Assembly: GCA_021613535.1 (NCBI GenBank)
Contig: CP075492.1
Location: 2,542,001 to 2,606,000 of the forward strand
Length of the DNA stretch: 64,000 nt
Direction: 5' to 3'
Source: Adineta vaga
Lineage: Eukaryota > Animalia > Rotifera
Positions 961-55,580 of this stretch are shown one piece after another. The notes under the pieces were generated by a model, which worked only from the letters and a program-made list of their open reading frames with translations, had not been told where the DNA came from and did not search any database. The first letter of the stretch is position 1; the number at the start of each line of letters is the position of its first letter. The position numbers and the translations under genes were made by a program.

Positions 961-1412
961 AATTTACACAAGAAAATTTCATCCTCGAAAAACATAGTAC
1001 AAAATATGCATTTTTAAAATGCAGAAAAGTGTGTGCATGACATTATTTCTGATCTTGATTATCCTTACAAAGAAAATTCAAACTTTTCATTTATTTGTCA
1101 TAGAAGTTAATAACCACGCAACTCAATTCCATACGTGTTCAAGAATACCAAACGGCAATCTAGAAGTGGATTCAAACGATGAAACTTTCTATAGAACATC
1201 GTGGAGACTACTTCAAATATTTATGCTATAAAAAGACTAGCAAAATGTTTTTTCTATGAATAAATATTTAAAATTCCGAGAACTTATTGACTGCCCTATG
1301 TAAATGAAATAAATATATATTCTCGTAAATACACAACAACAACTATTAAAATTGAATTGAAAAAAAAAAGTGAAATATAAAAATACGTTCGATAGTAACG
1401 AGTGTTTTTCTT

Positions 1413-2574
1413 CTATTTTCGAGTTTTTAATTGAATTGATTGAGATTGAGATATTACAGTAGCAGCAAATTGTGTACCAACATTAACACGATGATTACGC
1501 ATAATATGTAAAACATTAAAAAATTCTTGACGAAATAATCGACTTGATAAACAATGAATATAAAAAGATACCTAAATATATATATAAAATATTATTTCCA
1601 TAAAAAAAAATCTTTTTTATTTAAATTAAACTTACAGCATAATTAATTGAAGCAATTAAAATAGCAATAGAATTAAATTGAAATAATTGTTGTACTGTAA
1701 GTTTTGATCTTAGAACATAAGTCATTAAAATATAAAACAGACTTAATGGAATTTGCGTGAAAAAAAATAAAATAATACTTGAAATCATTATTATAAATAT
1801 TTGTCTTTCAATAAAAATACGACGTTTACGTGTTGATTGTAATGTTTGTTGTTGACAGCGTAATTTTATATAAATATTTATACTTAATATTATGAGAATT
1901 GTTGTTGGAATTATTATTTGAAGAATTGTTATTAATATTGGCCAAATCTTTTTCAAAACAAAAAAAAACATTTTATTTTAAAAAAACAGAAAGAAAATTA
2001 CCGTTGAATAAAAATATTGATATATTGAATTTGCTGATCGACTAACGGAACATGCAATTAACCCTTGAACAACTTCAGTTGATGGTAATAACAAATGAAA
2101 ATTAAGAAATATTGAAAAAATTATAATTATAAATGTTCCAATATGAACTCGTTTTTTTGTACAAAGTTGTTTTACACGAAATGGATAATAAATACGAATC
2201 CATCGATCAATTGTTATTGTTAATAATAACCATATTGAAGAACACATTGAAAAATATTGAAAAAATGAATAAATACGACATAATTGATTCATTAAATTTG
2301 TATTTGTTATTGAAATATTAAAACCAAGAAATAGAAAATGATAAAAACATGTTAATAAATAAATTATATTTGATATTGTCATATTTATAAATAATTGACT
2401 TGTAGATTCTTTACGTAAACTATCACGACGAAATATTATTAAACTTATTATATGACCGAAAAAACCAAATGAAAATATGATTAAATATCCATACAAATAT
2501 ATATTTCTTTCAAAAGAAATTGTAGAAGATGAACCTGGTCTATTACTGTTATTTGAGAATGTTGATGAATTCAT
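1413..2574 (-). CDS. Orphan rhodopsin-family (peptide-receptor-like) GPCR, 3 exons (2574-2002, 1947-1636, 1571-1413)
   Basis: Hydrophobic TM segments, TIDRW (DRY-like), TM7 SINYAVSFYIHCLSSRLFRQEF after splicing; GT-AG introns keep frame. Confidence 0.85.
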
Positions 2575-2957
2575 TCAATTGTTTTCACTTGTAGCGAATT
2601 TATACGTTGTAACTATATGATTCTTATCTGAATATAATAAAAAAGTGTTTCTTATCAATATATTTATTTATATTAGGATTAGTATTCAACTTTTAATTTA
2701 CTTTAGGATAAAGGAAAACCGTGACGTCTCAATAGAAAATCTATTTATAAAAATAAATGATGTTAATTTTCACTTACGAGGAATTAAAAGTTGAAGTTCT
2801 TGTAAAACACTTCTAATTATTTTTCAAAATATTTAATTATTGAAAAAATTCTTATTATTTATCTGATCAGACCGGAAGAGGAATAAACCGTTTTTTTTTC
2901 TAAAAATTATTTCAAACATATACTTAGATCGATTCAATTTTAATACTGATTTCAAAA

Positions 2958-3575
2958 TAAACCCCCTCCCAGAATAAAAGCCCACCATCAATGTTATAAT
3001 TTTCGAGATATAATAGAAGCCCTTCTAATCCGAAATGCGCGCATAATCAGACATAAGAGAACAAATTATTTTGTTGGTAGTAGGGGTGGTACTTGAACGT
3101 TAACCTTAAAGGAAAAACTCAATTTTAAAATTGTTTAAAACCACTAAATAAAGAATTTTATTGTGACTTTCAACACCTTTAAAGTTAAAGTTAAAGTGCC
3201 ACCCCTTTTTGGTAGAATGAAATTTTTTTCAATATATTCACTTGATATCTGCTTCAGTTTGTTTCCTTTTTTCCTACACACATTTTCAGACAATCTATTT
3301 CTTTTCGTGTTGTTTATGTTTCCGGCTACTTTGTCATAAAAAACAATGATAAATATATATTCTAATGTTTTCTTTATGTAATAATAATAAAAAGTTGTGG
3401 ATGAAGAAAGAAAAAGATACAAATGATGATATTATAATTACGACTACTTTTAAATTTATACAGATCGTCGTAGAAAAGCGAAAAAAATGGTACCTTAATA
3501 TAAGCCCACCTTTAAACTTATAATTTTCTGAATATATCAGAAGCCCAGTGGGCTTCTATTCTGGGAAGGGGTTTA
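2958..3575. mobile_element. Non-autonomous TIR element (MITE-like, Tc1/pogo-type)
   Basis: 28-bp terminal inverted repeats TAAACCCCCTCCCAGAATAAAAGCCCAC vs reverse complement TAAACCCCTTCCCAGAATAGAAGCCCAC (26/28). TA at both ends; internal repeat AAGCCCACC...AGAAGCCC near both ends; no transposase ORF. Confidence 0.7.
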
Positions 3576-23829: not shown

Positions 23830-24784
23830 ATGTATTACAAAATATATTTGTATAACTTTATCGGTTTTTTCATTGGCATTATTATTGCTCCATGGTTCTT
23901 ATCATATAGCAAGCCACAAAGAATAACAACATCTTCTGAATCTGTTACTACAATGAGACCAGACATAATTGAGTCAAAAACACCTTCATCCGTCAATTTT
24001 TCCATTAATAATGAAAATATAGATCAATTTTACGCCGAATTTTATAAATATTACGAACTGAATAGAGAATGGTTGGTATAATGACATGTTCGTCTATTAT
24101 AATCACTGATCATTATTTATTTCTGATTGTAGGATTAAAAAATCGTATCTTGGAGTGCATTTTTTACAAAATCCAAATGATGCTTTGACAATTGCTGAGA
24201 TACTTCATGATCAAGATATTGATCTGGTTATCGAAACAGGTTCATACCGAGGAGCAGCTGCTCTTTTTTTTGCTTCAGTTATGTATCAATATCGATATAA
24301 TGCAAGTGCAAAGAACATTCGTCCATTCAAAATTATCACTATGGATATAAATCCTGATGCTAAAACTTACATTAATCGATACCCACTTCTCGCTACCTAC
24401 ATCACATTCATTCCACATGCGAGTGTTTCTTCAATAGCAAAATCGATCGTTAATAATACATTTGTCGAAATGAAGCCTGCAAATGTATTCATATCACTTG
24501 ATGGTGATCATTATGCTCAAGCTGTCTATGATGAATTAGTTTACTATCAGAAATTTGTACCAAGTGTTGGTAATTATATTCTTGCTCAAGACACTCGTCT
24601 ATCAAGCAAATGGCACACTCTATATTGTACTGCATCAAAATTCGATGGACCTTGTAATGGACCACAGGAAGGTGTCAATTGGTTTTTAAAGAATGAAGGT
24701 CAAGGACGTTTTATCATAGATCGCAATAAAGAGTATTTATTTAGTACTCATCACAAAGGATGGCTCAAGCATATTGCACATTAG
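23830..24784 (+). CDS. CmcI/cephalosporin hydroxylase-family (rhamnosyl O-methyltransferase-like) SAM-dependent methyltransferase with N-terminal membrane anchor; 2 exons (23830-24071, 24133-24784)
   Basis: YLGVHFLQNPNDALTIAEIL..DLVIETGSYRGAAALFFA, IITMDI, FISLDGDHYAQAVYDEL, GNYILAQDT, STHHKGWLK; the intron restores frame. Confidence 0.8.
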
Positions 24785-27793: not shown

Positions 27794-30700
27794 ATGTCTT
27801 CGTCTGATAGTGATGATACCAATGAAGCTGATAATTTGGATGATGATATACATGAAAATGGTTTTGATGGTACGGTGGATGTGAATGAAACAAGTCATTT
27901 AACGTCGTTATACAATTCCTTAATATCTTCTGACACAACTCCTATTATTGATGGATCTCCATCAATTCGATCTGCTTTTAAAGCGTCATCTCGTCTGTCT
28001 TCCAATCAAACAATAATCTCATCAATCTTTGGTGATTCAATTCATTCATATATTGAAGCTACATCATTATTTCAATCAAATGAAACACTTTCACCATATT
28101 ATTTATCGTTGAATTCAACAAATGACCAGTCACAATTGAACTCCGTTGAAGCAGCAAAATTATTTGTTGGAAACATTGCTTATGCAGCTAATGCTAAAGA
28201 ACTAAAAGAATTTTTTATAGGACTTGGTTTTAATGTTGTTCATCTTGATCTTCTTGTCAATCCAGGAAACGTAAATTTTCTTTTCTTATGATAACATTTT
28301 GTTTTTCTTCTGTATTTCAATATAGACAGGTCATCGTGGCATTGCATTTGTTCGATTCGGCTCCGCAGACATTGCTCAAAATGTACAATATCAATTTGGA
28401 AAAACTCCAAACCGATTTAAATTTCGAAGTCGTCAATTAAAAATAGGTAATTGCAGAAAATCTCAGCCACAATCAAAAATCAGTGTTGCTGATCAAAAAA
28501 GTAATGTTCTCAGTTTCAATATTGGACAAGTTCTTTATGGTACATTAATAAAGGGAACAACAATGAATAATATCACTGGTGTTAATAGTGCTATTGAATT
28601 TGGTTTGATTGCAAATTCACTTGTTAATAATGAGGAAAATATGCGCATACGTTTACAAATTGATGAACAAGAAAGAAAATTTTCAATCATTGTTTCATAT
28701 GGCGAAGCTTTATCACGCCATCTCACATTCGAATGGGCTTTTAGCGCGTAAGAATTTTTTGTTTCCTACTAGAAATTTATTTTCATAACTTTCTCTACTT
28801 TTAGTTTGAAAGGAGAAAAGATTAGTCCAATTTTAATCAATGATTCAAGTGTTAGTTTACTAATTGAATTAAAACGACCACCTGTTATCATTCACTCTTA
28901 TTCCAATAATCAAAATGATGAAAAAATCGATCTACGTATGCCCGGAACTCCACTTATTGGACATGCCAATGCATGGGTTTTTCAATTGAACAGTCAAAAA
29001 TTTACAGATGATTACAGCAGATTGTTCCATATTCTTCGTCTTCATAATTTATCATCACGTCGATTTATCGAACGAAATATTTGGTATTTGATATATCCAA
29101 TACGAACTGCTCGAGAATATCTTCGACATGTTCAAATACTATCGAATAATGAATGGATTAAAGATAATCGTGAAATAGTTAATCGTTTTCTTAATAATCG
29201 ATGGCCTCAATATCCATTTGAAACAAAATTTGAACTAATGAAATTACTTTCTAAACATATAATTACCATTCATGATTTAATTATTGATGAAAATCTTGAT
29301 AAAATCTTAGCTCAATGTTCATTAAATACATTTATTGCATGTGTCAGTAAGTCTTCAGATAATATTTGTATATGAAAAAACTAGTATTTTCTATTATTAA
29401 GATAAAATCATCGAATTTGCTCATCATTCGCTTTATAGTATTTGTGATGACAATGAAGAAGACGAAGAAGAACAATCCTCATCAACAACAACAACAGAAA
29501 ATTTACCAATGGAAGAGGATCCTCCATCTCACATTATTTCATTAGCAACTGGTACATTGATCAATGTGATAAATACAGAACCCATATCTTTAACAACCAC
29601 ACTGATTCGATCAGTTCAAAAGAATGAACTTGGTTATCTTAGTCGTTTTCTTCTGATTGCACTTGATCAGTTACGAAATAAATACGAATTACGTCGAAAT
29701 ATTGATGATAGAATCTATGTAACTAAACATGAATTACATCCAGTTAATGTCAATTCATTTCTTATTCGAAAAGTATATATAACACCATGTACTATTTTCT
29801 ATGAAGGACCATATTATGAAGAAAGATGTCCTGTTACTCGACGTTTTGAACAACAACAAGATGGATTTTTACGCGTTAGTTTTCGTGATGAAGGTAAGTG
29901 ATGAATTTTTATTCGAAATCTAAGACTTTTCTTTGTAGATTATCGAAAATTACAGTATACAAATGCTGAAATGAGTCAATTGTATGATCGTATGAAAGCG
30001 ATATTGATCAATGGAGTTAATGTGTGTGATCGACGTTATAATTTTCTTGCTTTTTCAAGTTCACAACTGAGAGAACATTGTTGTTGGATGTTTTCTTCGA
30101 TGAACAATGTTTCAGTTGAGACTATTCGTAATTGGATGGGTGATTTTCGAAATATTCATCCAGTTGCTAAGATGGCAGCGCGGGTAAATATTTCTTATTG
30201 AATTTTCATTGAAAATCTTAATTCTTTTAGTTGGGTCAATCATTTTCAACTTCAAAAAAAGGTCTCGAACTTACAAATCAAGAGTATCGAAAAATCTCGG
30301 ATGTATATGTGAATGGAGTATGCTTTACTGATGGTATTGGTATCATTGCACCATGGTTGATTAAAAAGTTATATGAAAAATTAGGTATTGGAGAGAATTC
30401 TTATCATCCTTGTGCTTTTCAAATACGTTTTGGTGGTTATAAAGGAATGGTATGTTTGGATGTGGCAAATCGTATTTCTGAACCTGATGTTGGATTGTAT
30501 CTTCGTGACTCAATGAATAAATTTGATTCGAGCAATTATTCGATTGATATTATTCGTGGATCGTCGATGCCATCTGCTGGTTTTTTAAATCGACAGATTA
30601 TTCTTCTATTATCTTGTCTAGGAATTGATGATGAAGTATTTCTTTCAATGCAAGATAAGATGCTGCATGATTTACAAATACTTAAAACAAATCCAAAAGA

Positions 30701-32399
30701 AGCGAGTGATTTTTTGAGAAATATGGGTGGATCAGGTGGAAATGGTTATCATGCATTTTTATTGGAATATTTGAAAAGATTTAATCAATCAAGTGATCCA
30801 TTTGTTCAACAAATTCTTGTTACTCTTCAAGGTTTTTTAGTAAAAGAATTGAGAACTAAAGCACGAATTTTCGTTCCAAATACTTGGTGTTTATTTGGTG
30901 TCATTGATGAAACACGAGATCTTCAATATGGCGAAGTTTTTATTCAAATAGAACAGAAAAATGAATCGGGAAATCTTGTTACAAAAACTCTAACTGGACC
31001 AATTATTGTAACAAGAAATCCATGTTTTCATCCGGGTGATATTCGTCGTTTAATCGCAAAAGATATTCCTGCTTTACGTCAATTAAAAAATGTTATTGTG
31101 TTTCCAATCAATGATAAACAATCTCATCCAGCAGAAATGTCCGGCGGAGATCTTGATGGAGATACTTTTTGGATTTCTCAGGATGAAAGATTATTATTCA
31201 CAATGGACGAAAAACCATTTGATTATCATGATCAAGCCGCGGAAGATGCAAAACAAATTGAAATTGATAAAACAGCTGTTTATGGAATTAATGATGTGTG
31301 TTATTTCTTTGTTGAATATATCGAAGCAGACAAGTAAGTTGTGCAAATTTTATCAAATTATCATTCAAAGATTGTGTATATTTAGTCTTGGTGTAATTGC
31401 GGTTAGTCATATGGCCTTTGCTGATCTATCTCCACTTCGAGCAAGAGCATCCGAATGTCTGACATTAGCTCGAATGCACAGGTATAGAATGTTTATCATT
31501 TGTATAAATTCGAATAATTCTTAAAATTTTCCATTAGTACGGCTGTTGATTTCGCTAAAAATGGTGTTAAAGCACCACGTATTACGAAAAATCTTCGCCC
31601 TCCAAAATATCCTCATTATATGGAAAATAGATATAAAGAAAATTATCATTCAAACACTATTCTTGGTCAATTATATGATGATGTTAAACAATTTGAAGAA
31701 CATTTACATTCAACTCAAGAAAAGAATGTTCTTAATCAATTTAGTTTTCCTTATGATATATTGATGATAAATGGATTAGATGTTTATACAAAATCAGCAT
31801 CAGCAACAAAGAATGCATATGATTTAGAATTGAAACAAATTATGCGACAATATGGAATTCAAAATGAAGCAGAACTTGTTTCAGGATATATTTTAAAATT
31901 TACTTCAAAACAATATGTTAAACAATCAAAATTATTTGATTTAAGAAATGAAATAAGTTATGCTGTTAAAGTTATACAAGATAAGTAAGTAGAAATATAT
32001 TATTGAATTGTTGTATAATATAGTCTCTTTTGTATTAGATACTTGCACATTTTTTATGAGGAACTTTATCAACATGCGTTTGATAAAGGACAATTAAATG
32101 AAGATTTTCAATGGTCAGATGTATTTAAAAAATTAAATTGGAAAAATCAATTCAATCTATTCGAATATTATAATAAGGATCAAATAACAAATGAAAATGA
32201 AATTATGAAGAAAGCATCAGCATGGTTTTATGTTACTTATAAATGGTTTATTGATCAAATTGAATCGAGTAAAAAGAGCAAAAAACGACATCGAAAACGT
32301 CAAAAACCAAATGAAAATAATCAACAACCAAGTTTTTTCAGTTTTGCTTGGATTGTTTATCCGGTCATAATGGAAATTTATGATAATAACAAACAATAA
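27794..32399 (+). CDS. Cellular RNA-dependent RNA polymerase (RNAi RdRP) with N-terminal RRM; 9 exons (27794-28270, 28326-28747, 28805-29346, 29402-29893, 29939-30183, 30231-31333, 31386-31481, 31538-31984, 32039-32399), ~1394 aa
   Basis: RNP2 KLFVGNI and RNP1 RGIAFVRF; FLRVSFRDE, FLAFSSSQLRE, KMAARLGQSFS, CFTDGIG, AFQIRFGGYKGM, VTRNPCFHPGD, catalytic SGGDLDGD, AVDFAKNG. All 8 GT-AG introns keep frame. Confidence 0.95.
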
Positions 32400-32808: not shown

Positions 32809-35800
32809 ATGACGATACCAACAATTGTGACCATCTGGTTAGATCAAATGTCTACTACTACTGCTGTTACTGTCGCTCCGACAATTCATCTTTCTCTATG
32901 TAAGATTGATCCTTACTTAATGAGATTTCGTAATTCTGATCGATGTTTCGATTATATTACTCATATCAATGAAAATGATACACAAGTCATTCTCATAATT
33001 TCTTGTGATAATACAAATTATTTATCTTATTCGTTCTTAAAACAATGTGAGAAAACTTTACAAATTTCTTTGGTTTATATTTTATCATCGACAAAAAGTA
33101 CAAACATTTCGAACGAAGTCTTTCTGAATACAATTAAAATACGTGGTCCCTATACAGATATATCTGAACTATGTGATCAGCTGAAACAGCTGCCCTACAT
33201 AAAAAAGCAGTGTACACAGAGAAAGGAGAGTTATCACCAGACCTTTTGGCATGACTATCTACCTGCAATGACTTCTACTAAAAACCAATGTTCATCACCA
33301 ATCATAGACAATACAGTTGTACGTCAAGAAGCTGATTTTATGTATTGTTCACTTTTGAGAGAAATTTTACTTCGAATTGATTCTACAGAAGAAGAGATAA
33401 CTACATTTTGTAGGCAACAATGTGCTGGTAATGAAAGAGATCTCATTGTTATTGAAGAGTTTGAAACTTTCTACGAAGCACATAATGCAGTTTTCTGGTT
33501 TACAAGAGATACATTTCTCTTCCGTATATTAAATAAAGCATTAAGAGAATTGGACATAAGTAGTCTCTATTCATTGAGATATTTTATCAAAGATGTGCAT
33601 TTACAATTGGAAAATTTACATTTCAAACAATTAGTATCATCACCGCTAACTACCAATACCACATCAGATCAAGCTCTACCGGGTAAAGTGTATCGAGGAC
33701 AATTGATGAGCAATAAAGAATTTGACAAGAAAATTCGACATAATTCAGGCGGCTTTTTCTCAGTAAGTTCTTTTTTCTCGACAACACCGCATAAAAACTT
33801 AGCTACTATATATGCTGGTGATGGTAGCAAAGCAGATCATTCTCAGAGTGTTTTATTTGAGATTCAAATTGATCAGAATGTTAACAAGTTTCCCTATGCT
33901 GATATCTCTGAAAAAAGTATGTATGAAACTACTGAAAATGAAATTCTTTTCACCATGGGAGCTATATTTCGGATATTATCAATAAATTTTGATACTGAAA
34001 CGAAGGTTTGGTATGTAAATTTAAAACTTACTGGTGACGAAGATGAAGAACTAAGAATTTTAAGTGAACATTTAAAAGATGATGTTATCCATTCATCTTA
34101 TCCAATGGCTAGTCTTGCAAAATTGATGGTAAGAATGGGCCAGTTTACAAAAGCTGAACAACACTTTCTCGCAATGCTCGAAGATTCTGATTTTATTAGT
34201 GAATTTAGAAATTACGCTTACATCTACAATAACCTTGGCTTGATTTATATGTATTTGAATGAGAAAGAAAAGGCAAATACACACCTTCAAAAATCAGTTG
34301 ACATTTTGCTTGAACATTTGTCTGAAACAGATCCACTTATGGGACCAATATACAATAATTTGGGTGAGAACGGTCGTGAACAAGGCGACTTTGAAAAAGC
34401 TCTTGATTATTATGCGAAAGCACTGAATACTTATCAGTTGATAGATGATATATCGCAGCAGAACGAAATCGGAATTATTCATAATAATATTGGATTGGTA
34501 TATGCAGCACAACATCGGTATTCTGAAGCATTTGAAAGTTATCAGAAATCATTGACTATTCGAGACAAAATCCTTCCCTCAAATCATCCGGACTTAATGA
34601 TGACATACAATAACATTGCTGTTGCCCTTTATGAGCTTAATGATTATGTTAAGGCAACGGAATATTACTCTAAAGTACTTTTTATACAACAATATTCACT
34701 TCCGCATGATCATCCTGACTTTGGAAGAACGTATAATAATTTAGGTACCACTTGTCACAAAGAGGGAAAATTTAGCGAAGCAATAGAATGGTATGAAAAA
34801 TCTTTTGAAAATTTGTTACAATTTTTACCCAGTGACCATCCTGACATTGCACGATATTACAATAATATTGCAACTGTATACTTAGATTCTGGTGAATATA
34901 CCCTCGCAGCTGAATCATATAACAAAGCACTTGAAATACGAAAACAATTTCTTTTGCCAACTCATCCTGATTTAGCAATAACTTATCATAATTTAGGTTC
35001 AACATATAGCGAAGAAGATAAATTCGAAGAAGCATTAGAAATGTATGAGAAAGCTGTAAATATCTGGATGAACGATTCAACCAACAATAAAAATGCACTT
35101 GCAAACACTTTTTATGGCATATCATCATTATATAATCAACGAGATAAATATGATAAGCAAATAGAATTTCTAAACAAAGCTCTGAAGATACAACTTAACG
35201 CACAACCATTTGATTATGCAAGGGTTACCAAAATGTATGACACTTTAGGTTGTACATTTATGAACCAAAATAAGTTCAAAGAAGCATTTGATACATATAA
35301 AAACTCTTTAGATATTCGATTAAATATCCTTTCTTTGGATCATCCTGATAATGCAAGATCATGCAATCATCTTGCGCAAGCTTGCAGTGGATTAGGAAAT
35401 CATTCTGAAGCTCTTCAATACTTAGACAAGGCATTGTCTATACAGTTAAAACTACTACCATGTAGTAATGCAGATTTATCCGATACTTACAACACTTTCG
35501 GTCTTGTCTATTATCGACAAGAAGAATTCCAGAAAGCATTAAATATGTACGAAAAATCTTTCGATATCAAATTACAAGTTTTGCCCAGTAGTGATAGATC
35601 ATTTATAGCATTATATGATAATTTCGCATCCTTATACGATTCTCTTGGCGATCAGAATAAACATACACAATATCTCAAGAAAATGCTCCAGATACAAACA
35701 GAATTTTTTTCATCAGGACATCCAACATTTGCCAATACATACCATAGATTAGGTGTTGCACATTACAAACAAAAGAAATTCAAAGATGCATTAGACTGGT

Positions 35801-36690
35801 ATTTCAAAGCTTTGCATTTACAGCAAGAAGTGCTTCCACATGTTCATCTTGACATTGCAACGACTTATAATAATCTTGCATTAGTGTGCATTGAAGGAAA
35901 TGATTTTGAAAAAGCAATTGCTGGTCTTGAGAAAGCTCTTGAGATACGACTAAAGTTACTACCAAAAGATCATCCTCTTCTACATAAGACTTACGGTAAT
36001 TTAGCTGTTACATACCGACATCAGAAAAATTACGAAAAAGCAGAAGATGCATTTCAGAAATGTATCAATATTCAACTAAAACAAAATTCACTAAATCACA
36101 GTAAAATAGCTGACAGCTACAATGGTTTATCACAAGTTTATCATGAACAAGGACATGTTGATGCTTCAATAAAATGTCTTGAAAAAGCTTTAGATATACA
36201 CAAAAAGTCTCCCTTGCCGAACGCTGAAATATTATCGATGACTTACAATAGATTAGGAGCAGCATTTTATTTGCAATCAAAATTTGATAATTCATTAGAA
36301 ATGTTTAAGAAAAGTTACGAAGTCGATTTAAAACTAAATTCATCGAATCATATAGAACTTCTTCCATCTCTGAACAATATTTTGCACGTTTATTGTGTAC
36401 TAGGTGATTACGACAAAGCTATTGATTGTCTTAATGAAATTCTCAACGTTCATCTTCATTCACTTCCAACAGATCATCCAAATTTTACTACAATTTACTT
36501 CAAACTTATGGAACTGTTCTTCAGGCAAAGAAAGCTCAAAGAAGCACTTTATTATGCACGAAAGAAATATACTACAGATCTAAAAAATTTATCGCCTGAT
36601 CATTATCAAATAAAAAAAAATGTGAATACAATTGCCATATTGGAAATTCTCTTGTGGTATGAGCTTCAAAGAAATAATTTAAAGTCATAA
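32809..36690 (+). CDS. ADP-ribosyltransferase (R-S-E type) domain fused to ~19-20 TPR repeats, intronless
   Basis: AVFWFTRDTFLFRILNKALR, VYRGQ, FFSTT, ENEILF, then 42-aa TPR units (HPD.A.TYNNLG..Y...G....A). Confidence 0.9.
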   Translation: MTIPTIVTIWLDQMSTTTAVTVAPTIHLSLCKIDPYLMRFRNSDRCFDYITHINENDTQVILIISCDNTNYLSYSFLKQCEKTLQISLVYILSSTKSTNISNEVFLNTIKIRGPYTDISELCDQLKQLPYIKKQCTQRKESYHQTFWHDYLPAMTSTKNQCSSPIIDNTVVRQEADFMYCSLLREILLRIDSTEEEITTFCRQQCAGNERDLIVIEEFETFYEAHNAVFWFTRDTFLFRILNKALRELDISSLYSLRYFIKDVHLQLENLHFKQLVSSPLTTNTTSDQALPGKVYRGQLMSNKEFDKKIRHNSGGFFSVSSFFSTTPHKNLATIYAGDGSKADHSQSVLFEIQIDQNVNKFPYADISEKSMYETTENEILFTMGAIFRILSINFDTETKVWYVNLKLTGDEDEELRILSEHLKDDVIHSSYPMASLAKLMVRMGQFTKAEQHFLAMLEDSDFISEFRNYAYIYNNLGLIYMYLNEKEKANTHLQKSVDILLEHLSETDPLMGPIYNNLGENGREQGDFEKALDYYAKALNTYQLIDDISQQNEIGIIHNNIGLVYAAQHRYSEAFESYQKSLTIRDKILPSNHPDLMMTYNNIAVALYELNDYVKATEYYSKVLFIQQYSLPHDHPDFGRTYNNLGTTCHKEGKFSEAIEWYEKSFENLLQFLPSDHPDIARYYNNIATVYLDSGEYTLAAESYNKALEIRKQFLLPTHPDLAITYHNLGSTYSEEDKFEEALEMYEKAVNIWMNDSTNNKNALANTFYGISSLYNQRDKYDKQIEFLNKALKIQLNAQPFDYARVTKMYDTLGCTFMNQNKFKEAFDTYKNSLDIRLNILSLDHPDNARSCNHLAQACSGLGNHSEALQYLDKALSIQLKLLPCSNADLSDTYNTFGLVYYRQEEFQKALNMYEKSFDIKLQVLPSSDRSFIALYDNFASLYDSLGDQNKHTQYLKKMLQIQTEFFSSGHPTFANTYHRLGVAHYKQKKFKDALDWYFKALHLQQEVLPHVHLDIATTYNNLALVCIEGNDFEKAIAGLEKALEIRLKLLPKDHPLLHKTYGNLAVTYRHQKNYEKAEDAFQKCINIQLKQNSLNHSKIADSYNGLSQVYHEQGHVDASIKCLEKALDIHKKSPLPNAEILSMTYNRLGAAFYLQSKFDNSLEMFKKSYEVDLKLNSSNHIELLPSLNNILHVYCVLGDYDKAIDCLNEILNVHLHSLPTDHPNFTTIYFKLMELFFRQRKLKEALYYARKKYTTDLKNLSPDHYQIKKNVNTIAILEILLWYELQRNNLKS

Positions 36691-44810: not shown

Positions 44811-45557
44811 TTAAATGGAATCTCGAAGAGAAAATAATGGTTCAGTTTCTTTTAATTGTATTATATGAATATCTTCGGATGGTTGAGATTGATTAACAAC
44901 TGTAAACTGAGTTGCTGGTAATAATAAAACTTCATTTTCATCAGAATACATTGAATGGTGTCGGATATTTTTTGCATTTTGACATTCAATAATAAAAATT
45001 GTACGTATTCCTGTTTTGCCTAATACTGTATCTTGTTCTAATACATCGAGTTTTGACGTACATGATGAAAAAGCCCACCATACAAATGTCTTGCCTACAG
45101 GATAGACATCACTTAAATTGAGTTTAGCTCCACGAAACAATGTACGATCGTTTGATGGAGGTAGTTTAGCGAGACCTGTTAAAATCAATTTTAAATAAAG
45201 TAACCATGGTTTTAATAAAGCTCTTTTTTCTTTACGAAGAGTAGAATTGAAAATATAATAGAGACTTTCTTGGTGTTTAGGCCATTCCATGGTATATAAC
45301 ATAATAGAAGTTGATTCATCTGATGTCAATTGATCTGCAGGAGATTGTGAATTAAGTTTAGCAAGCCATGCTTTACGTTTTATATCTGGGACAATTGAAA
45401 TCAATGGAATAATAGATTCTTCTAATGATACCAATGGTTTTTCTTCGTAACCTTCGATAGGTAATAACATTTTATCAGGTTCTTGGTTCATATCAGAAAT
45501 ACGTTGAACATTAATGGATTCATTATCAGTACTATTGGCATTACTCGATGATGACAT
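44811..45557 (-). CDS. Stand-alone NAD:arginine mono-ADP-ribosyltransferase (ARTC, R-S-ExE), 248 aa
   Basis: LLPIEGYEEKPLVSLEE, LTSDESTSIMLYTMEW, TLFRG, WWAFSSCT, ENEVLLLPATQF; ATG at 45557; no signal peptide. Confidence 0.9.
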   Translation of the reverse strand: MSSSSNANSTDNESINVQRISDMNQEPDKMLLPIEGYEEKPLVSLEESIIPLISIVPDIKRKAWLAKLNSQSPADQLTSDESTSIMLYTMEWPKHQESLYYIFNSTLRKEKRALLKPWLLYLKLILTGLAKLPPSNDRTLFRGAKLNLSDVYPVGKTFVWWAFSSCTSKLDVLEQDTVLGKTGIRTIFIIECQNAKNIRHHSMYSDENEVLLLPATQFTVVNQSQPSEDIHIIQLKETEPLFSLRDSI

Positions 45558-46309
45558 AGTAGTCTCTAAAACAGAAGATGTGATGAACGAATTTTTACCG
45601 ATAATCACGTCGAATTCTTGAAGTACAAACTTTTAGAATTTAAGTATTAAATTGAAAACATCTACTCTATTGAATAAGAGATACGAATATAAATACTGAG
45701 TACAGCGCTTTTCAGTATTTTGATGCTATAAAATTATTATTATTCATCAGATGATTTAAAGAAAGATTTTCTTCAAAATGATAAGCACAAGAAAACTCGA
45801 CAGGATAGTCTGATTTTAAAAGTTTTAAAAAGCTTTTGTGCTATTAAAATTAAATGTCTCTAAAACCATTCGGAAACAACATTGATTTTGGCTTAATGTA
45901 TAAACGTTTTTTGTTTGTTGAACTTAATACAAAGCTAAATATTTTAATTTTATTAGGATTAGCTCAAACATATATGAATACATACACAATATATTGAAGA
46001 TATAGCAGAATTTTTACAGAAAAAGAATAAAGATTACCATTAAACTGCTTTCAAAATCGCAATGAAACGTAGTTCTCAAAGACAGCTACTAGAACTATTG
46101 CATTTCAAATTCTTTAGATAATTTGAAACAAATTCTATTGAACATAAAGGTGATACTTTAATTTTTAGTCTTTTAATCGTTCTAACTGGCTTAGTGATAT
46201 TCAAAAGACTATCTGTAACTTATGACACATGAAAATCTAAGAAATGAGCAAATGTGAAAAAGTTTTCCCCTTTAAACTTTTTTGTTAAAGCAAACTGTAA
46301 GTTTTACGT

Positions 46310-47332
46310 CTAGTTCAAAACATTCAAGACGACATCAAACCGTGTGTCATATATTCTCTGTTTTATCATTCTCTTCATACCTGATATATTATGAATCAAA
46401 GTAGCTTGATTCGTTTGATCAGCTGGCAAAAGTTCTAGCATATCATCGGACTGCAGAATGTACTCTAAGATATTTTCACCGTCTTCAAGTTGTCGACCAC
46501 CAAAAACTAATCGCTGTTGACCAGGTGGAATACCCTCCTTATCTTGAATTCTTGCTTTCACATTTTCTGTAGTATCACTTGGTTCTACTTCTAATCCAAA
46601 AGTCTTTCCAGTTACTGTTTTTACAAGGATTCGTATGCTGCCATACATCCTAAGTACGAGATGCAATGGGCGTTCCGTTAGATTATTGTCGTCTGACAGA
46701 GTTCGATCGTCCTCAAGTCTTCGACTAGCAAAAACTAATCGCTGTTGATCAGTTGGAATATCCTCCTTATCTTGAATTTTCTCTTTCACATTTTCGACAG
46801 TACCCTCTGGATTTACTCCCAATGTAATAGTCTTCCCAGTTATTGTTTTAACAAAATTAAAAAAGCCATGACGCAATCTTGGAATGAGATGCAATGTGTA
46901 TTCACCACATTCTCTAATATTATAATCTAATAAAGTTCGACTATCTTCAAGTTCTCGACCAGTATAAATCAATCTCTGTTGATTCGTTGGAATACCTTGC
47001 TGTTTGTAAATCGCTTCTTTAACGTTTTCAATAGTATCTTCTTGGTATACTATCAAGCTAAAATCATTTCCTGACTGTGTTTTAATAAACAAACAGCAGT
47101 GTGGGCGCCAGACAAGCCAACGTGCGTGATGTAACATGCTTTCATTTTGAATATTGTAGTCTAATAGAGTTGAACCGTCTTCAAGTCGTCGACCACCAAA
47201 AACGAATTGCTGTTGATCAGGTGGAATACCCTCCTTATCTTGTATTATCTCTTTCACGTTTTTTATAGTAAAACATGGCTCTACTTCTATTGTAATAGTT
47301 TTCCCAGTTATTGTTTTAACAAAGATTTGCAT
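46310..47332 (-). CDS. Divergent tetra-ubiquitin-like protein with C-terminal extension
   Basis: Four ubiquitin units ([19 protein letters not shown]...[11 protein letters not shown]...LED); none ends in LRGG. Confidence 0.9.
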
Positions 47333-48583: not shown

Positions 48584-51500
48584 TCATTTATAGGATGAAA
48601 ATGTCGATGTAGAACGTAGGCTAGAAGAAGCAGTATTTGTCGATGATATTGATGTTGGACCATCTAACGATTTCATTAGATCATTATATGCAATTTCAAA
48701 AGCTCTAAGTTTTTCAGTTGCATTAGTTTTATCTTTGAAATATTTTTCAACCGTCTTGATTTGATCACAATCCTCAATTTGTTTTCCCAACAATTCTTCT
48801 GGTAAACCACATATACCACTTCGACAAGGAGTATCATTTCCATATATACCAAGACAACAAGCCCATATCAATTTCGGAAGTTGAGCATTAGATGAACGTG
48901 CTTGTATTAATTTTGCTGCTTGTATAATAGCTTGTGCTTCATCATAACTAATAGATTTCTTTGATTGAAGATTATAAATATAACCATCATGATATTGACA
49001 ATTACCATAATTTGTTTTGGATAAAATATAACTCTGACGACATTTCGGACAGATTTTTTCCGTTTCATCATCGAGTTCTTTTCTTTTGCGTTCTTCATCT
49101 TGTTTGATTTGTTCTTCACTTTTCTTAAAATCAATATCTTCAATCAAATGACTACGTAAAAGTGAATGTTTAACAATCATAACAATCCATTTTTCTTTTG
49201 CAGCAAAATTATTCTAAAATAACTGATGTATTTTTCAGTTTTATATAGAAAATAAAAGATAGACTCTTACACTACTATCAACAGGTTTATTTTCAACAAA
49301 TGCTTGTTTACATTTTTCACGTATATATTGATATAGATGAATATTTGAAATTGATGTTGATTGTGATGTATTTGAATCATTTATACTCAGCATAATAAGT
49401 GAATCAATATCAAAAATAAACATTGAACGATTGTATTCATCACATTCTATGAAAGGACGAGTGCAAAATGAGATAGATTTTCTGCAAAATGATCTTACCA
49501 GCAAATGTCGTTGCAAGTAATTCAAAGATTTTATTCTCATCAAAAGCATTATTTTTAGAAAAGAAATCTGTATCTATAATTTGAATTGTATCAATATTTC
49601 GACTAGAACAACCATTAATAATACGAGCGAGTAAAGTCATCAATGATGTTTCATCATTGAATAATGCTTTTTCAATTGTATATCCATCAGATAATTCAAT
49701 AAAACATGTTCTTTCTTGTAAATCAATTAAAATTCGTCCTGACGGTTTCTTTTCGGAAAAAACTAATGAAAATTTGTCAGATTGATTATTTGTTGTATTT
49801 GTATGGAATATATTTGGATAAATACGACAAATTTCAGGTAGAGTACTACTTCCAAACCAACAACTAAATTCTCGAGCTGTATTATTAGCAAGTGAAAGTA
49901 ATGTATGATTCGATAATGATGTTGGATTATCTGCTAGAAAACTAACAATACTTGATTTCAATCCACCTATTGCGGCACCACTAAAATTTGTTGTAATTTT
50001 TACAAGAAAATTGAGTCGATCATTATTGAAGTCTTTTAAATCTTTTGTTAAAAGTGGTTTAAGCATTTGTTTACGAATTTCAGGCGATGGTCGACCAACA
50101 AAACATTTTGCCTGCATACGTCTTAGAAAAGCATCATCCATCATATTTCGTCGATTTGTTGCACCAAAAACAATCAAATTTGGTATGTTTTTTACACCTT
50201 CAATATGTGAAAGAAGAACACTAATACCATCGACTTTCGATTGTTGTGCATTATTATCTCGTTTCGGTACTAATCCATCGATTTCATCAATAGTCATAGC
50301 ACACATCAAATATGGAATTGTATTAGCACGATACATGATATCAATAAGAAGTTTTTCTGTTTCACCGACATAAGGTCGATTAAGTTCACCTGCAGCTAAT
50401 GGAACTGTTGTCATTGTAATACCAGCATAAACAGCTGCTCGTTTAAGTAGTTCTGATTTTCCTACATAGAAACGAAAAATAAGTTTAAAATGACAAAAAA
50501 AATGATATAACATACCTGTTCCTGGCGGCCCATAAAGTAATAAACCACGACCAATTTTCACTTTAAGTTTATGATGCTCATCAGCATTAATAAGATCCAA
50601 CTTGGATTGTCGATCATTAATCTCTTTTGTATTGTTTTCAAGACTTTCAATAAGTTCATTACACTTTTTCATTATTCTCTCGAATTCCATGACTGTTTTC
50701 TGCAAATCATTTTCGGCATCTCTCTTCTTTTTTTCAACTTGCACTTGTTTCCCTCGAGCTTTATCCAAAGCATCTCTGTACACGAGCAAACCAGATGTAG
50801 ATCTACTAATTGTATCCCTGAGATTATCTATTTCTCTTTTTATGAGTTCCTCTTCTTGGGATATATTTGACAAGCGAAATTTTTTTGTTTCAACATCCAT
50901 TTTCATACTGTTAAATTGAGATGTCGTCAAACTAAATTCTTCTTCCAAACTTTTAGCTCTGTCTTTAAGTTGCTTGAGTTCATGTGACCAAGTATTACGC
51001 TTCTGTTCAATCTCTTCTTCCGTAAAACTTGCAGTTGGAACACAAAATGTTCGTAGATATTCATAAATAGTACTAATTACATTTCCATCATCAGCATAAA
51101 ATTTACGTAATTCTTCCATGGCTAAATCTACCGCCTTTCCATCGAGATATGTTAATTGTTCTCTTTTCCCGATAACATCATAAAAATAACGTTTAACTCG
51201 ATGAATATCACCTAACAATGTAGCTGTGGATTCTCTATAAGGATCAGTAGTTTGATTGAAACTACCTGCAGCAGCATTCAATTGTACATAATCGTAAATC
51301 ATTTGTTTCACCGCAGGTTTAACACCACTAACCTTTTCCCAGATACTTTCATTCATAACTGTGTTTTGAAGATGTTCAATTGTTTTAATATTTTCATCTA
51401 TATAGATAAAAATGTTATATATAAGTATATATGGAAATGTAAAGGCGCCAATACCTCCGAGATCTTTCGTCCACTTTTCAATATCTTTCTGATCATATTT

Positions 51501-52091
51501 GTTCTGACGACCAATAGATTTAAGAAGATCTTCTAACGTATTAATTTCTTCGGAAAAATCAGAGGAATTAATTATGTCAGTTCGATTATTTGATGCTTCA
51601 TTGTAAGGAATAATCGTTACATTTACAGAGGTATCTGATGTTGTGTACCATATTTCAGGAAATTGAGTCTCTTTAGTACCAGGTCGATAATCTAATTCTA
51701 ATAGATCGAGTAAGTAATTGAAATTCCATGGTCCAAATTTATCATTTTTACGTATAAATAAATTTGGTCGATAAACTGGACGTTCTGTTTGATTACTCAT
51801 ATCGATTGGTTTACTGGTTGATCGAAGTGCATAGAGTTGAAATACTGACAAAGCTTTTTCATTGATCATTAGAGTACCATTAGGTGTATTCAAATCGTCA
51901 ACGAATTTTTTCAATTGTAGATATTTGAATTTGATACGAATAGTCATAGTAAGTTCTTCAAGTGATACGGGTTTCGACTCCACAACTGTTGTTACATTTG
52001 ATTGTGTCCTTATAGTAACAGACTCACTTGTTTCACTAACTGTTGTATCGTTTGAAGGCGTCCATTTTTCAAAGCTATATCTTCTTTCCAT
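48584..52091 (-). CDS. Classical-clade AAA ATPase with SAM-like domain, coiled coil, degenerate second AAA module and CHORD-like zinc finger; 5 exons (52091-51455, 51397-50516, 50461-49499, 49446-49271, 49213-48584), ~1095 aa
   Basis: After splicing: Walker A GLLLYGPPGTGKS, pore loop YVGETE, Walker B TIDEID, GATNR, DDAFLRR; later SMFIFDIDSL; C-terminal CPKC..C.YHDG..WACC..C..GIC. All introns GT-AG and frame-consistent. Confidence 0.9.
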
Positions 52092-52203
52092 TTAGGAATT
52101 AAATATTCTTAATCTAGAAAAAAAAGGAAGTTCTTCTCGAGTAAATAATTCACAGAAAAACAAAAGTTTCAGTTAAAATGTTAACTTTTTCAATGTTTTT
52201 ATT
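52092..52203 (-). promoter_or_regulatory. Putative intercistronic region: poly(A) signal, U-rich tract, splice acceptor
   Basis: Minus strand: TGA-AATAAA (52203-52198)...cttttgtttttctgtg...cttccttttttttctag| 22 nt before the AAA ATG. Confidence 0.5.
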
Positions 52204-55149
52204 TCAATTCAGATTCCTATTGCGTTTCTCTACATTGGATATTGGCGTTGCAATTTGATTTTGTTGAACTTGTACCTTTTGATCTTTTAGTTCTTGTTTG
52301 ATAATATCCGCTGATTTCGCATCAAATTCCATTCTCTTTTTACAATAGTATTGATTGAGTGCAGTAATTTTTTCTTCAGCTTTTGCCATATCTCGATATA
52401 TTTGTTTACGAAGTTCCTTATTTTCAGCATATTTATCTTCATTATTTTGTATTTTCTCTCGTACTTGACGTAATGCTTTTCCACTATCTGCAATCTGTTG
52501 ACTATTTTCTTCTACATTTGTATTAAGTGTTTTGAGTTGATTTCTTGATGCTTGAATTTTCTCACGACTTTGTCTTTCATTTTCACTAACCACTCGTAGA
52601 GATTCGGATACATTCTCAATATCTTTTTGATTTTTCATTATGTCTCCTTTTTTCAATTGCAGTTTTGATTCAACTTGTTCAACATCTTTCTTTAATTTGT
52701 TATGATGAGTTTCGTACAAATCACGTTTTTGAACAAGTTCTTGTACTTTAATAGTTTGCGATTGTACTTTCGAACGAGCAATTTGATGAGCAGTTTGATA
52801 TTCATTCATTTGTCGTTGAGTTTGTGTTCTACGTTGTTCTAATGTTGCTTTCTCATCAACAACACTTCGAATTTCTTCCGATACAATATTGAGTTGGTTA
52901 ATTTTCTCTCTTAATTGACTTTCTACTCCATTAAGATTATTCGTTTTTATTTCCAACTCGTTCTTCAATTGTGCTTCGTTCTTTTCTGTGGCTTGTAATA
53001 ATGTTCGTTGATTTTCTAATTCTCTTCCTGTCATTTTTTCCATATTTGTTTTATCACGAAGTTTTCGTTTTATATTTTCATTTTGTTGTTTGAATTGTAG
53101 AATTATACCAATTTGTTTTTGATGCTCCGTTGTAGCTGTATCGAGTTGATCTTGTTTTTCGCGTTGTTTGATTCGATGATCATCCATATTACGTTCATGT
53201 CGTTGAATTTTTGTTTTTATACTTTCAACATTTGATTTCAAATCTTCTCGTTGTTGACATGATTGTGCAAGTTCACTTTGATTTCGTTGAAGATCATTAT
53301 TAGCACTAGTGAGTTGTGTTTGAACACGATTTAGTTTATTTTGTGTCGTTTTAAGTTTACTTTCTGTTTGAGCTTGTTTACGATTGACATTGCGGAGGGT
53401 ATTGTTAAGTGAATCATATTCATTTTTACATCGTGAAACAGCAGCTGATTTTTGTCGAACGATGTCTTCTTGTTGGATTCGATCGTTAGTTAAATTACGA
53501 TATGTTGATTTTGTCGTTTGTAATTCTGATTTTGCTTTACTGTGTTGTTGACGAGCAGTATTGCATGCAGTTTCTTTTTGAGTAAGTTTGTCTTTTGCGT
53601 CTTTTAATGCACTTTCTGCTGCACTTTGATTACCACCCAAACCAGGAATAGGTATCTTTGCCCACAACGTTGCAGCCACTGAAATAACAGTTCCAAAGAA
53701 ACTTTGTGATTCTGCACTTTGAAGTCGAGCTTCGGCAACGCGGACTTGTTCTTGAGCTTGACGAAGTTCATTCTCAGCTGAGTCGAGTTGTGTTTGAGCT
53801 CTTTGTTCTTCAGCTATAGCTCGATCATGTTGAGTTTGAGCTTCTCTTTCCTGTTGTTTAAGTTGGGTTAGTTGTTGAGTAGCTTCCGTATGTTCAGTAA
53901 TAGCAGTTTGATGATTTCTCTGTGCATCATCTCGTTGTTCTTGTAAACTATTACATTCAGCAATCAATTGATCGCGTTCTGCTTCTAATTTGTCCTGTTC
54001 TATTTCATGAAAATTCACTTCGTTCGTAAATTGTTGGTGAGATCGTTCTAGTTGGGATACTTTATCTTGAATTCGTCTGATCAATTCTTCTGAAGTACGT
54101 AGTTTTTCTTGAACTGCTCGAAGTTGATTATTGAATTCGGTAAGTTGATCTTCTAATTCCATGAATTGACGATCTAAATCACATTTTTCTAACTCAAGCT
54201 GTTTTCGATTCGTTTCAAGTTCAATTCGTCGTCTTTCTGCTGCATCTAATTCATTTGCCAATTGTCTACATTGTTCCGTAAGTTCATTAATCTCTTCTTT
54301 CATTTTAATAAGTTCTTTTTCAAGTCGTTCGATATTTTTCTGAAAAATCGCTGCTTCTACTTGTAAACGATTGATACCAGTTACTTTTTCATCAAGAGCA
54401 CGTTTTAATTCATTAATCATCGTAGTCAGTTGTTCCTTTTGTCTTTTCAAATCTTCTTGTTCACTCTTGAAGTTTTGCTCTTGTTCTTTCAGACGATCAA
54501 GATCAACATTTAATTTTTCAATTTGACCCACAATTTCATAGAAATTTGCTCGTAATTGTTCTACTTTTAATTCATATTCTTGACGTCTTTGATTTTCCTC
54601 AGTAACTAATTGTTGTTGTTCTTTAATTTGCTCATTCATTTGATCAACTTGTTGTTCTAAGTCTTTCAATGATAATTGTAAATTATTTTCGATTTGAATA
54701 TTTTCATTTTTACGTTCCTTCATTTCGATAATTTGATCTTGTAATTGTTTTTCTTCGAGTTGTAATCGATTATTCAATTCCATATAAGAATTTTGTTCGT
54801 TTTTATAATTTTCAACTTGCATTTCATATTTTTCTAGATTATTTTCGTAAAGAACAATAGCATCGACTATTTCACATTGTTGATTACAAAATCCTATTCT
54901 TTCTTGTTCTAATTGTGTAAGTCGTTCAGCATGTTCTTTAAATTCTTGAAAGAGTGGATCATATTGATTCAATATTTTCGTACTTTCAGCATCATGTTTC
55001 TTATTCTTTTCTCCAAGATTTTTGCTTTCGACGAAATATTCCTCACTTTTTTTGCCACACATTTCAAGGAACTCTCCTACTTGTGCTTGATTTTTTTTAT
55101 ATTCTTTCAATTGATTTGTAAAAAAAGCATCCTGTTGATTGTCAGCCAT
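52204..55149 (-). CDS. 981-aa coiled-coil protein with a central hydrophobic segment, intronless
   Basis: Continuous heptad-like E/Q/K/L-rich sequence broken only by FFGTVISVAATLWAKIPIPGLGG at residues ~484-506; ATG at 55149. Confidence 0.85.
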   Translation of the reverse strand: MADNQQDAFFTNQLKEYKKNQAQVGEFLEMCGKKSEEYFVESKNLGEKNKKHDAESTKILNQYDPLFQEFKEHAERLTQLEQERIGFCNQQCEIVDAIVLYENNLEKYEMQVENYKNEQNSYMELNNRLQLEEKQLQDQIIEMKERKNENIQIENNLQLSLKDLEQQVDQMNEQIKEQQQLVTEENQRRQEYELKVEQLRANFYEIVGQIEKLNVDLDRLKEQEQNFKSEQEDLKRQKEQLTTMINELKRALDEKVTGINRLQVEAAIFQKNIERLEKELIKMKEEINELTEQCRQLANELDAAERRRIELETNRKQLELEKCDLDRQFMELEDQLTEFNNQLRAVQEKLRTSEELIRRIQDKVSQLERSHQQFTNEVNFHEIEQDKLEAERDQLIAECNSLQEQRDDAQRNHQTAITEHTEATQQLTQLKQQEREAQTQHDRAIAEEQRAQTQLDSAENELRQAQEQVRVAEARLQSAESQSFFGTVISVAATLWAKIPIPGLGGNQSAAESALKDAKDKLTQKETACNTARQQHSKAKSELQTTKSTYRNLTNDRIQQEDIVRQKSAAVSRCKNEYDSLNNTLRNVNRKQAQTESKLKTTQNKLNRVQTQLTSANNDLQRNQSELAQSCQQREDLKSNVESIKTKIQRHERNMDDHRIKQREKQDQLDTATTEHQKQIGIILQFKQQNENIKRKLRDKTNMEKMTGRELENQRTLLQATEKNEAQLKNELEIKTNNLNGVESQLREKINQLNIVSEEIRSVVDEKATLEQRRTQTQRQMNEYQTAHQIARSKVQSQTIKVQELVQKRDLYETHHNKLKKDVEQVESKLQLKKGDIMKNQKDIENVSESLRVVSENERQSREKIQASRNQLKTLNTNVEENSQQIADSGKALRQVREKIQNNEDKYAENKELRKQIYRDMAKAEEKITALNQYYCKKRMEFDAKSADIIKQELKDQKVQVQQNQIATPISNVEKRNRNLN

Positions 55150-55580
55150 GTAATTCAATTAAGGATATTAAAACCTATAAATAATCATTACAGCTTTATA
55201 AATATATAATTATATGCAGGAAAGGACATGACGATAGGAATTATTCATTTTATTGTGTAAAACAAGAATAAAAACTATTTCCAGTTTTTCATGTTTCTCA
55301 AAAGAGTTGAATTCGTAAAGTGATAAGGTAGGAAAACAAAATTCTCCAAGATAGAGGGAATGAAATAACAAACCTTGTTTCTCTAAATGTCTAAAATGAA
55401 GAAAACAAAATGCTTATTCGCGTAGAATATACGTATGAGAGAAATGGAAAAAAACTTGCGCGTATGTAAATGAGAGAGATAAAAAAAACCATTGTATGCA
55501 CAGGTGTATGATAAGGAAAGGAAAAAATATATTACTGATTGAGCAGACTGCGACGCAATCCTTAAAAAAGAGGTGACATG

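Follow-up and report, generated by a model that had tools for sequence, protein, structure and literature searches.

A conserved two-gene module of bdelloid rotifers: a candidate giant hairpin coiled coil and its neighbouring AAA ATPase

The pairing of an AAA ATPase with a coiled-coil client of its own, as in NSF with the SNAREs and Vps4 with ESCRT-III, is ancient, and few instances exist. In the Vps4/ESCRT-III, CdvC/CdvB and PspA/Vipp1 systems, a helical-hairpin membrane protein is served by a dedicated classical AAA ATPase, and the genes are linked in archaea. Two further groups invite comparison: the ClyA/Hbl/Nhe alpha pore-forming toxins, which carry a hydrophobic segment between helical arms, and the dynein stalk and ClpB M-domain, in which an antiparallel coiled coil projects from an AAA domain. 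Here we describe a locus of Adineta vaga, lying in a 64,000-nucleotide stretch of DNA (the window), where the gene for a very long coiled coil (the rod) is followed by that for an AAA ATPase. The two constitute a real, conserved and undescribed two-gene module, most likely a lineage-specific rod with its remodeller in bdelloid rotifers. A literature search found no description of the pair, in agreement with the original prediction, whose author recognised no described animal system of this layout. The window is AT-rich and holds GPCR, TPR, RNA-dependent RNA polymerase, ADP-ribosyltransferase, ubiquitin-like and F-box genes; the features discussed are collected in Table 1.

Table 1. Features of the window, of a second locus read as DNA (L002) and of the linked rod–ATPase loci; positions are those of the window unless L002 is named
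Feature	Position	Strand	Evidence or remarks
Intronless rod gene, 981-aa predicted hairpin coiled coil	52204..55149	-	ORF; RNA-like contigs in 4/4 runs; homologues
Acidic N-terminal arm, residues 1–483, unbroken heptad phase	53701..55149	-	Charge and heptad analysis
Hydrophobic/aromatic apex, residues 484–506, exonic, variable among homologues, putative one-leaflet anchor	53632..53700	-	Composition, contigs, homologues
Basic C-terminal arm, residues 507–981, unbroken heptad phase, short polar tail	52207..53631	-	Charge and heptad analysis
112-bp spacer from rod to ATPase	52092..52203	-	AATAAA, pyrimidine tract, AG acceptor, in-frame TAA; putative operon-like/trans-splice-like layout
AAA ATPase gene, 1095 aa	48584..52091	-	Exons 52091-51455, 51397-50516, 50461-49499, 49446-49271, 49213-48584
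Coiled-coil hairpin of ~150 aa inserted in D1, between pre-Walker-A helix and strand 1	50574..51014 (approximate)	-	AF2 models, structural alignments
D1 AAA domain	49851..50546	-	Walker A GPPGTGKS (split by intron 2), pore loop YVG, Walker B IDEID, sensor-1 ATNR, arginine finger FLRR
Degenerate second AAA domain (D2), Walker A absent, DUF8254 region	49127..49739 (approximate)	-	Model alignment to NSF/Sec18, p97
C-terminal Cys/His cluster (CPKC...CQYHDG...WACC...C), probable zinc finger	48812..49051	-	Conserved Cys/His columns
Divergent tandem ubiquitin-like gene, four ubiquitin domains	46310-47332	-	Adjoins ADP-ribosyltransferase gene
ADP-ribosyltransferase gene	44811-45608		
CmcI-type methyltransferase	24155-24784		
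Eukaryotic RNA-dependent RNA polymerase fragment	30231-31337		
1293-aa TPR protein	32809-36690		
Two similar ORFs of ~110 aa downstream of the pair, RelE/ParE-like by eye	L002: 8638-8979, 12155-12481	+	No Pfam match
Weakly caspase-like ORF, flanked by the RelE/ParE-like ORFs	L002: 9959-11020	-	E 7e-5
Linked locus 1	Window	-	Rod then ATPase, 112 bp apart
Linked locus 2	L002: rod 448-3490, ATPase from 3668	Same strand	Read as DNA
Linked locus 3 (R. magnacalcarata/socialis)			Six accession pairs 3–18 apart, contigs of equal length
Linked locus 4 (A. steineri P0125/P0040 and cluster mates)			Neighbouring accessions, contigs of equal length
Linked loci 5–7 (A. vaga, Rotaria sp. Silwood1, Didymodactylos)			Merged gene models

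The rod gene, counted from its ATG, is covered by RNA-like contigs in all four runs, these runs being assembled contigs presumed to derive from RNA. Its product consists of two arms of 483 and 475 residues joined by the segment FFGTV...GLGG. The entire chain contains just 4 prolines and 15 glycines, 2 and 4 of which fall within this segment, and the heptad phase runs on within each arm without stutters and shifts at the apex. The original description of a chain that is coiled coil from end to end except at its hydrophobic midpoint is borne out, as is that of an acidic arm followed by one richer in Lys and Arg: the N-terminal arm (68 Lys/Arg vs 105 Asp/Glu) carries a net charge of −37 and the C-terminal arm (92 vs 70) one of +22. 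Profiles from Pfam, NCBIfam and the PDB give short, sub-threshold coiled-coil matches and nothing more, no Snf7/PspA/ESCRT-III profile matches, the central part has no Atlas match of at least 0.9, and PADLOC yields weak coiled-coil matches to JetC and LmuB alone. Three side observations concern the rod gene and its kin. An AG acceptor-like site lies on the minus strand at 55174–55176, 25 nt upstream of the rod ATG, with 55174 itself being the end point of one RNA-like contig. An intron close to residue 675 interrupts several homologous rod genes (the 2592–2534 region of L002; P0125, P0128) but not the window's copy. In many rods and clade-I ATPases (see below), the N-terminus opens with a stretch of acidic residues and then aromatic ones (DEDDFF in P0001), which may constitute a binding motif common to both.

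The ATPase gene begins where the original prediction placed it, 112 bp downstream on the same strand. That an AAA ATPase is adjacent holds true; that it is a single ORF does not, as four short GT-AG introns interrupt it. Introns 1–3 are seen as contig joints in 3, 3 and 1 of the four runs, and intron 4 is inferred from agreement with gene model P0002 (I4U23_011422 of Adineta vaga), the full sequence of which recurs without a mismatch in the spliced window ATPase. A single fused rod–ATPase gene was rejected for the window, given the in-frame stop before the AAA ATG and no contig joint between the genes; positions 52134–52205 have no contig cover in any of the four runs, an absence that proves nothing.

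First, the two genes tend to stay together. Homologues of the rod comprise P0001 and 29 representatives, 26 of which align to the family HMM; the other three (P0140, P0147 and P0149) were set aside, being taken for coiled coils of no relation. The homologues come exclusively from bdelloid and metagenome proteins, and the named ones that we looked up are all bdelloid. A profile search for further rods, insensitive enough to miss known homologues, returned P0001 alone, and the rod HMM has no match at 1e-6 among ATPase-only proteins. Pattern scans, which miss distant relatives, recovered only generic D1 matches (28–37%) as prokaryotic or viral counterparts and no rod in viral contigs. With rods on contigs shorter than 4 kb or without accessions left out of the count, the rod is linked to the ATPase at 7 of the 10 assessable loci, in Adineta, Rotaria and Didymodactylos, which supports the early notion of a dedicated neighbouring ATPase. 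The accession steps of 3 and 18 seen at the third linked locus also occur between pieces of one split gene (P0209/P0210). P0037, P0054/P0193 and P0126 were not accepted as true protein fusions: they are automatic gene models, those of P0037 and P0054/P0193 skip the ATPase N-terminal domains, and they are therefore counted as evidence of adjacency only. For P0128, P0138 and P0202, no adjacent AAA gene was found among the ATPase clusters looked up (14 of 120 listed), P0128 lying about 100 accessions away from a clade-II ATPase. One A. ricciae contig seems to hold P0128 together with two clade-II ATPases (P0069, P0195).

In a quick tree built from 103 of 123 ATPase cores, all 8 linked rows fall within one 48-row clade (clade I, support 100) and are scattered through it; only these 8 of the 48 are known to be linked, a small share that tells against a dedicated pair, though linkage was assessable for them alone. 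A second large bdelloid clade (clade II, 51 rows) differs in having additional sequence at the N-terminus, a pore loop that reads LVG, a more variable insertion (mostly 147–212 aa) and no known rod linkage. One of them, P0265 of Rotaria sp. Silwood2, is joined to many repeats that look FG-GAP-like by eye and may be a merged model. Among linked pairs, rod and ATPase identities co-vary (Spearman 0.92, 2 of 5040 permutations, 7 pairs; 0.90, 2 of 720, without P0037). From these sequence comparisons, the rod and ATPase genes have evidently been co-duplicated as a unit, but neighbouring genes that are merely duplicated together will diverge in step too, so the correlation is not evidence of contact between the products. 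We nonetheless regard the rod and ATPase as quite probably a functional pair.

Could the linkage instead be regulatory or inertial, with two proteins that never touch? Adjacent genes co-duplicate passively, and the spacer has an operon-like look: AATAAA directly follows the rod stop, then come a pyrimidine tract and, 22 nt ahead of the ATPase start codon, an AG acceptor at 52115–52114, and a TAA in frame with that codon lies just upstream of it. In one sample, three contigs break off precisely at 52115, the acceptor, with 3–7 unaligned letters, and the rotifer spliced leader is 23 nt long and ends in GAG (PMC3795323). Layout, contig ends and leader together hint weakly at an operon whose transcript is resolved by trans-splicing; a limited literature search found no description of operon-style expression in bdelloids. 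However, gene order and strand persist even though the rods of most pairs are only 22–41% identical and the flanking genes differ, and two proteins so unusual for animals would be unlikely to stay together by chance. Linkage without contact thus appears improbable to us, and we proceed with a functional pair.

Second, the rod very probably doubles back at mid-chain to form an antiparallel hairpin whose apex is the hydrophobic segment, as was originally proposed, a prediction that we base on sequence statistics. The arms are of similar length across six near-full-length homologues (N-terminal 441–488, C-terminal 456–498 residues), and in all 12 homologue rows examined the N-terminal arm is negative and the C-terminal arm positive. 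The small-residue (Ala/Ser) profile mirrors best about residue 492, with r 0.60 vs 0.39 for the best parallel shift. When charge covariation among 14 homologues is scanned over 740 registers, the best register is antiparallel, at i+j=988 on the apex axis (z 3.9). Leaving out one homologue at a time keeps this register first of the 740 in 12 of 14 cases and puts it second in the other two. None of 1000 label shuffles reaches the score within the apex window, whereas 130 of 1000 reach it at some register, so that the test depends on the apex window having been fixed beforehand. At a coiled-coil rise of ~0.15 nm per residue, arms of this length would give a rod of about 70 nm. In the gene model P0054, both arms are ~95 residues shorter.

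Some observations run counter to the hairpin. The arms of P0037 are unequal (476/344), and smoothed charge profiles alone do not pick out the apex axis, the anticorrelation being stronger for a parallel shift (−0.53, over a short overlap) than for the mirror at the apex (−0.3). The latter would be expected if the rod were a conventional parallel coiled-coil dimer, hinged or crossing the membrane once, akin to golgins, SMC or cytoskeletal proteins, and SMC and crescentin profiles do match the arms. These matches are nevertheless far below curated cut-offs (SMC 95 vs 567 bits), a motif search finds neither an N-terminal P-loop nor LSGG in the rod, the best parallel register reaches z 2.9 as compared to the antiparallel 3.9, and several apices are polar. 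We consider such a dimer highly improbable and retain the antiparallel hairpin. The outcomes that the original prediction had named as contrary to it, a parallel dimer or single-pass membrane span, homologues unlinked to the ATPase and a match to an ordinary cytoskeletal or golgin family, are not what we find, the rod being judged here by its amino acid sequence.

Third, what does the apex do? Because two hydrophobic stretches of the uncorrected AAA ORF proved to be in-frame introns, the apex was checked for being a retained or in-frame intron as well. This is ruled out by its 45% GC, by contigs that span it gap-free in all four runs and by the homologues, whose corresponding stretch is likewise aromatic or hydrophobic. 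That stretch contains 1–5 Trp/Phe, is the most variable part of the rod and, in 8 of 14 rows, includes the 11 consecutive residues of highest hydrophobicity in the chain. Its best 19-residue hydropathy ranges from −0.83 to 1.76 across 14 homologues, falling under 1.0 in seven and below zero in two, which leaves no conserved span of 19–23 residues. By composition, the apex is too variable, and often too polar, for spanning a membrane. The membrane-inserting apex envisaged at the outset is therefore not supported in the form of a membrane span or pore of ClyA/Hbl type; an anchor in one leaflet would fit the hydropathy range better. That the apex binds membrane at all seems to us rather likely.

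A tip that varies, in a family with many paralogues per genus, is also what one might expect of a defence or membrane-attack module, in which oligomeric rods would drive their tips into the membranes of invaders or infected compartments, with the ATPase priming or resetting them. The ADP-ribosyltransferase, divergent tandem ubiquitin and F-box neighbours in the window and the weakly caspase-like ORF in L002 could be read in the same way. Yet such neighbours are common in the window, which also carries several GPCR genes; the tips are in many cases too polar for a bilayer span; the acidic N-termini have no evident signal peptide by eye; and the rod's 51 PDB profile matches are all short generic coiled-coil stretches, with no pore-forming protein among them. 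An attack role is possible but unsupported, and we judge the module described in these terms decidedly unlikely, keeping to the one-leaflet anchor.

Fourth, the predicted fold of the ATPase resembles those of known remodelling machines. The AF2 model used is that of the paralogue P0009 (68 sequences, pLDDT 82); a single-sequence model of the ATPase (pLDDT 43) is useful for the inserted hairpin alone. The P0009 model runs from an N-terminal beta domain through a small helical domain, a helical domain, a hairpin (residues 341–485) and D1 to a second AAA-fold domain and the Cys/His domain. No known fold was identified for the beta domain in whole-model structural alignments, the small helical domain presumably resembles SAM (a weak Pfam hint, E 0.038), and the Cys/His cluster is one that we take to resemble CHORD/BTK motifs. 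Foldseek ranks Sec18/NSF D1–D2 first (7.9e-13) with Cdc48 close behind (1.5e-12), the top viral structural matches include a Tupanvirus vesicle-fusion ATPase, and VIA-align leaves NSF, p97 and proteasome ATPases tied by structural score. On this modelled fold, the protein is a double-ring AAA of the NSF/p97 type and the classical clade, as was anticipated. In the window's D1, Walker A, Walker B, sensor-1 and the arginine finger are all intact, and among clade-I rows Walker B is kept in 55/55 and the arginine finger in 53/55. Pore loop 1 reads YVG in 41 of these 55, as in the window protein, and LVG or HVG in 13. No GKS/T follows the first D2 strand in 14 alignment rows, and the D2 fragment alone finds no PDB match by sequence.

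In the structural alignments, model residues 303–333 join D1 while the hairpin is skipped, which identifies the hairpin as an insertion in D1. The length across it is 184–192 residues in 28 of the 41 measurable clade-I rows (median 188). Distant metagenome relatives (P0065, P0107, P0109, P0120, P0100 and P0106) have by eye the same domain order and no inserted hairpin, and the two of these six that are measurable have 34–36 aa across the site. The DUF8254 cluster, which holds the ATPase C-terminal region, has recorded members that are eukaryotic and mostly rotifer. The ATPase family is probably wider than rotifers and, since its distant members lack the hairpin, it predates the rod–ATPase pair; judging from these sequences, the coiled-coil arms seem to be a later acquisition of an older ATPase family.

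How might such a module work? The hairpin rod, its apex anchored in one leaflet, would bring both of its termini together at the base, far from the membrane, where they could serve as free tails for the D1 pore. A double-ring, presumably hexameric, ATPase would then bind the rod and use ATP to pull on it and take it apart or release it, much as NSF disassembles SNARE bundles and Vps4 disassembles ESCRT-III. Lacking Walker A, D2 might serve only to hold the ring together, and the six D1-inserted hairpins, each ~11 nm long, might act as arms gripping the rod. In NSF D1, the YVG loop grips the SNAP-25 tail (PMC6160233). However, the aromatic pore-loop residue is missing from three of the seven linked ATPases (LVG in P0037 and P0054/P0193, HVG in P0126), which weakens the threading step. 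By analogy, then, we hold the full reading, in which the ATPase binds the rod and takes it apart, tentatively and at somewhat less than an even chance.

The same parts could be arranged differently. If the rod were an adaptor or ruler and not a substrate, it would be anchored by its apex and hold the ATPase ~70 nm from the membrane, leaving it to act on third proteins. The nearly fixed, stutter-free arms suit a ruler, the extra N-terminal domains and Cys/His domain of the ATPase could bind other clients, and the ATPase family is present in clade II without known rod linkage. On the other side, no third gene is conserved beside the pair at the two loci read as DNA (the window and L002). The tightly held clade-I insertion length, as for a fixed partner, tells against an adaptor too, if mildly, for it fits both arrangements. 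We deem the adaptor unlikely and prefer the rod as a client. The boldest reading, to which we give only a modest chance, is that an operon-like pair has multiplied in bdelloids to provide 70-nm single-chain needles with variable membrane-seeking tips, which a six-armed double-ring ATPase would grip and push towards a membrane or pull back from it, for defence or for membrane repair during desiccation.

Whatever its task, the pair looks like an independent AAA–client system that one group of animals has drawn from two undescribed families; its client would greatly exceed all known ones in length, and its ATPase seems to have acquired arms. The system may be relevant to membrane protection during drying or to defence against parasites in bdelloids, though the present evidence contains no tie to either, and its spacer hints at operon-style expression in these animals. 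Being compact and made of two genes, the system can be reconstituted and is thus directly testable.

Finally, the comparison with known systems shows how far the likeness goes. NSF/Sec18 shares the double-ring AAA fold, over whose D1 and D2 the model aligns (Foldseek E 7.9e-13; 301 residues, Z 13.5, rmsd 9.8), the YVG pore loop in D1 and, if our view of the rod is correct, a coiled-coil client near a membrane. It differs in that the rotifer D2 has no Walker A, a hairpin is inserted in D1, there is an extra Cys/His domain, and the CDC48_N profile finds no match for a double-psi-barrel N domain of the NSF kind; the client would moreover be one 980-aa chain in place of four SNARE helices. The PMC12220480 supplement lists a separate true NSF (FUN_005653), a p97 (FUN_003225) and a true Vps4 gene for A. 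vaga. The best sequence matches of the rotifer D1 are p97/Cdc48/VAT and Rix7/Drg1, tied with NSF by structural score, yet the p97/Cdc48 sequence match is confined to D1 at about 30%, and the CDC48 model scores 84 bits against a cut-off of 803.

With Vps4/ESCRT-III, CdvC/CdvB and PspA/Vipp1, the rotifer pair shares the combination of a helical-hairpin membrane protein, as predicted here, and a dedicated AAA ATPase. Its hairpin is several times longer (981 aa vs a Snf7/PspA core of about 200 aa), its anchor would sit at the apex, and its ATPase would have two rings; ESCRT-III/Snf7/PspA and MIT profiles find no match, MIT having been scanned in 34 + 10 family members. SMC/Rad50 proteins resemble the rod as very long antiparallel coiled coils folded mid-chain, but the rod has no ABC head motifs and its partner is a separate AAA protein, whereas golgins are set apart by the rod apex, which has no conserved membrane span of 19–23 residues. 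The ClyA/Hbl/Nhe toxins share with the rod a hydrophobic segment between helical arms, the rod being about three times longer, predicted to have two helices and not a bundle, often too polar at its apex and without a match to their PDB profiles. As in the dynein stalk and the ClpB M-domain, an antiparallel coiled coil would project from an AAA domain of the rotifer ATPase; in this case the insertion precedes strand 1 of a classical-clade D1, and every subunit would carry one. Judged by sequence and profile matches, neither the rod nor the ATPase fits a described family. The pair belongs to none of NSF, p97, Vps4/ESCRT-III, SMC and the golgins, and by analogy it likely works in the manner of NSF with the SNAREs or Vps4 with ESCRT-III.
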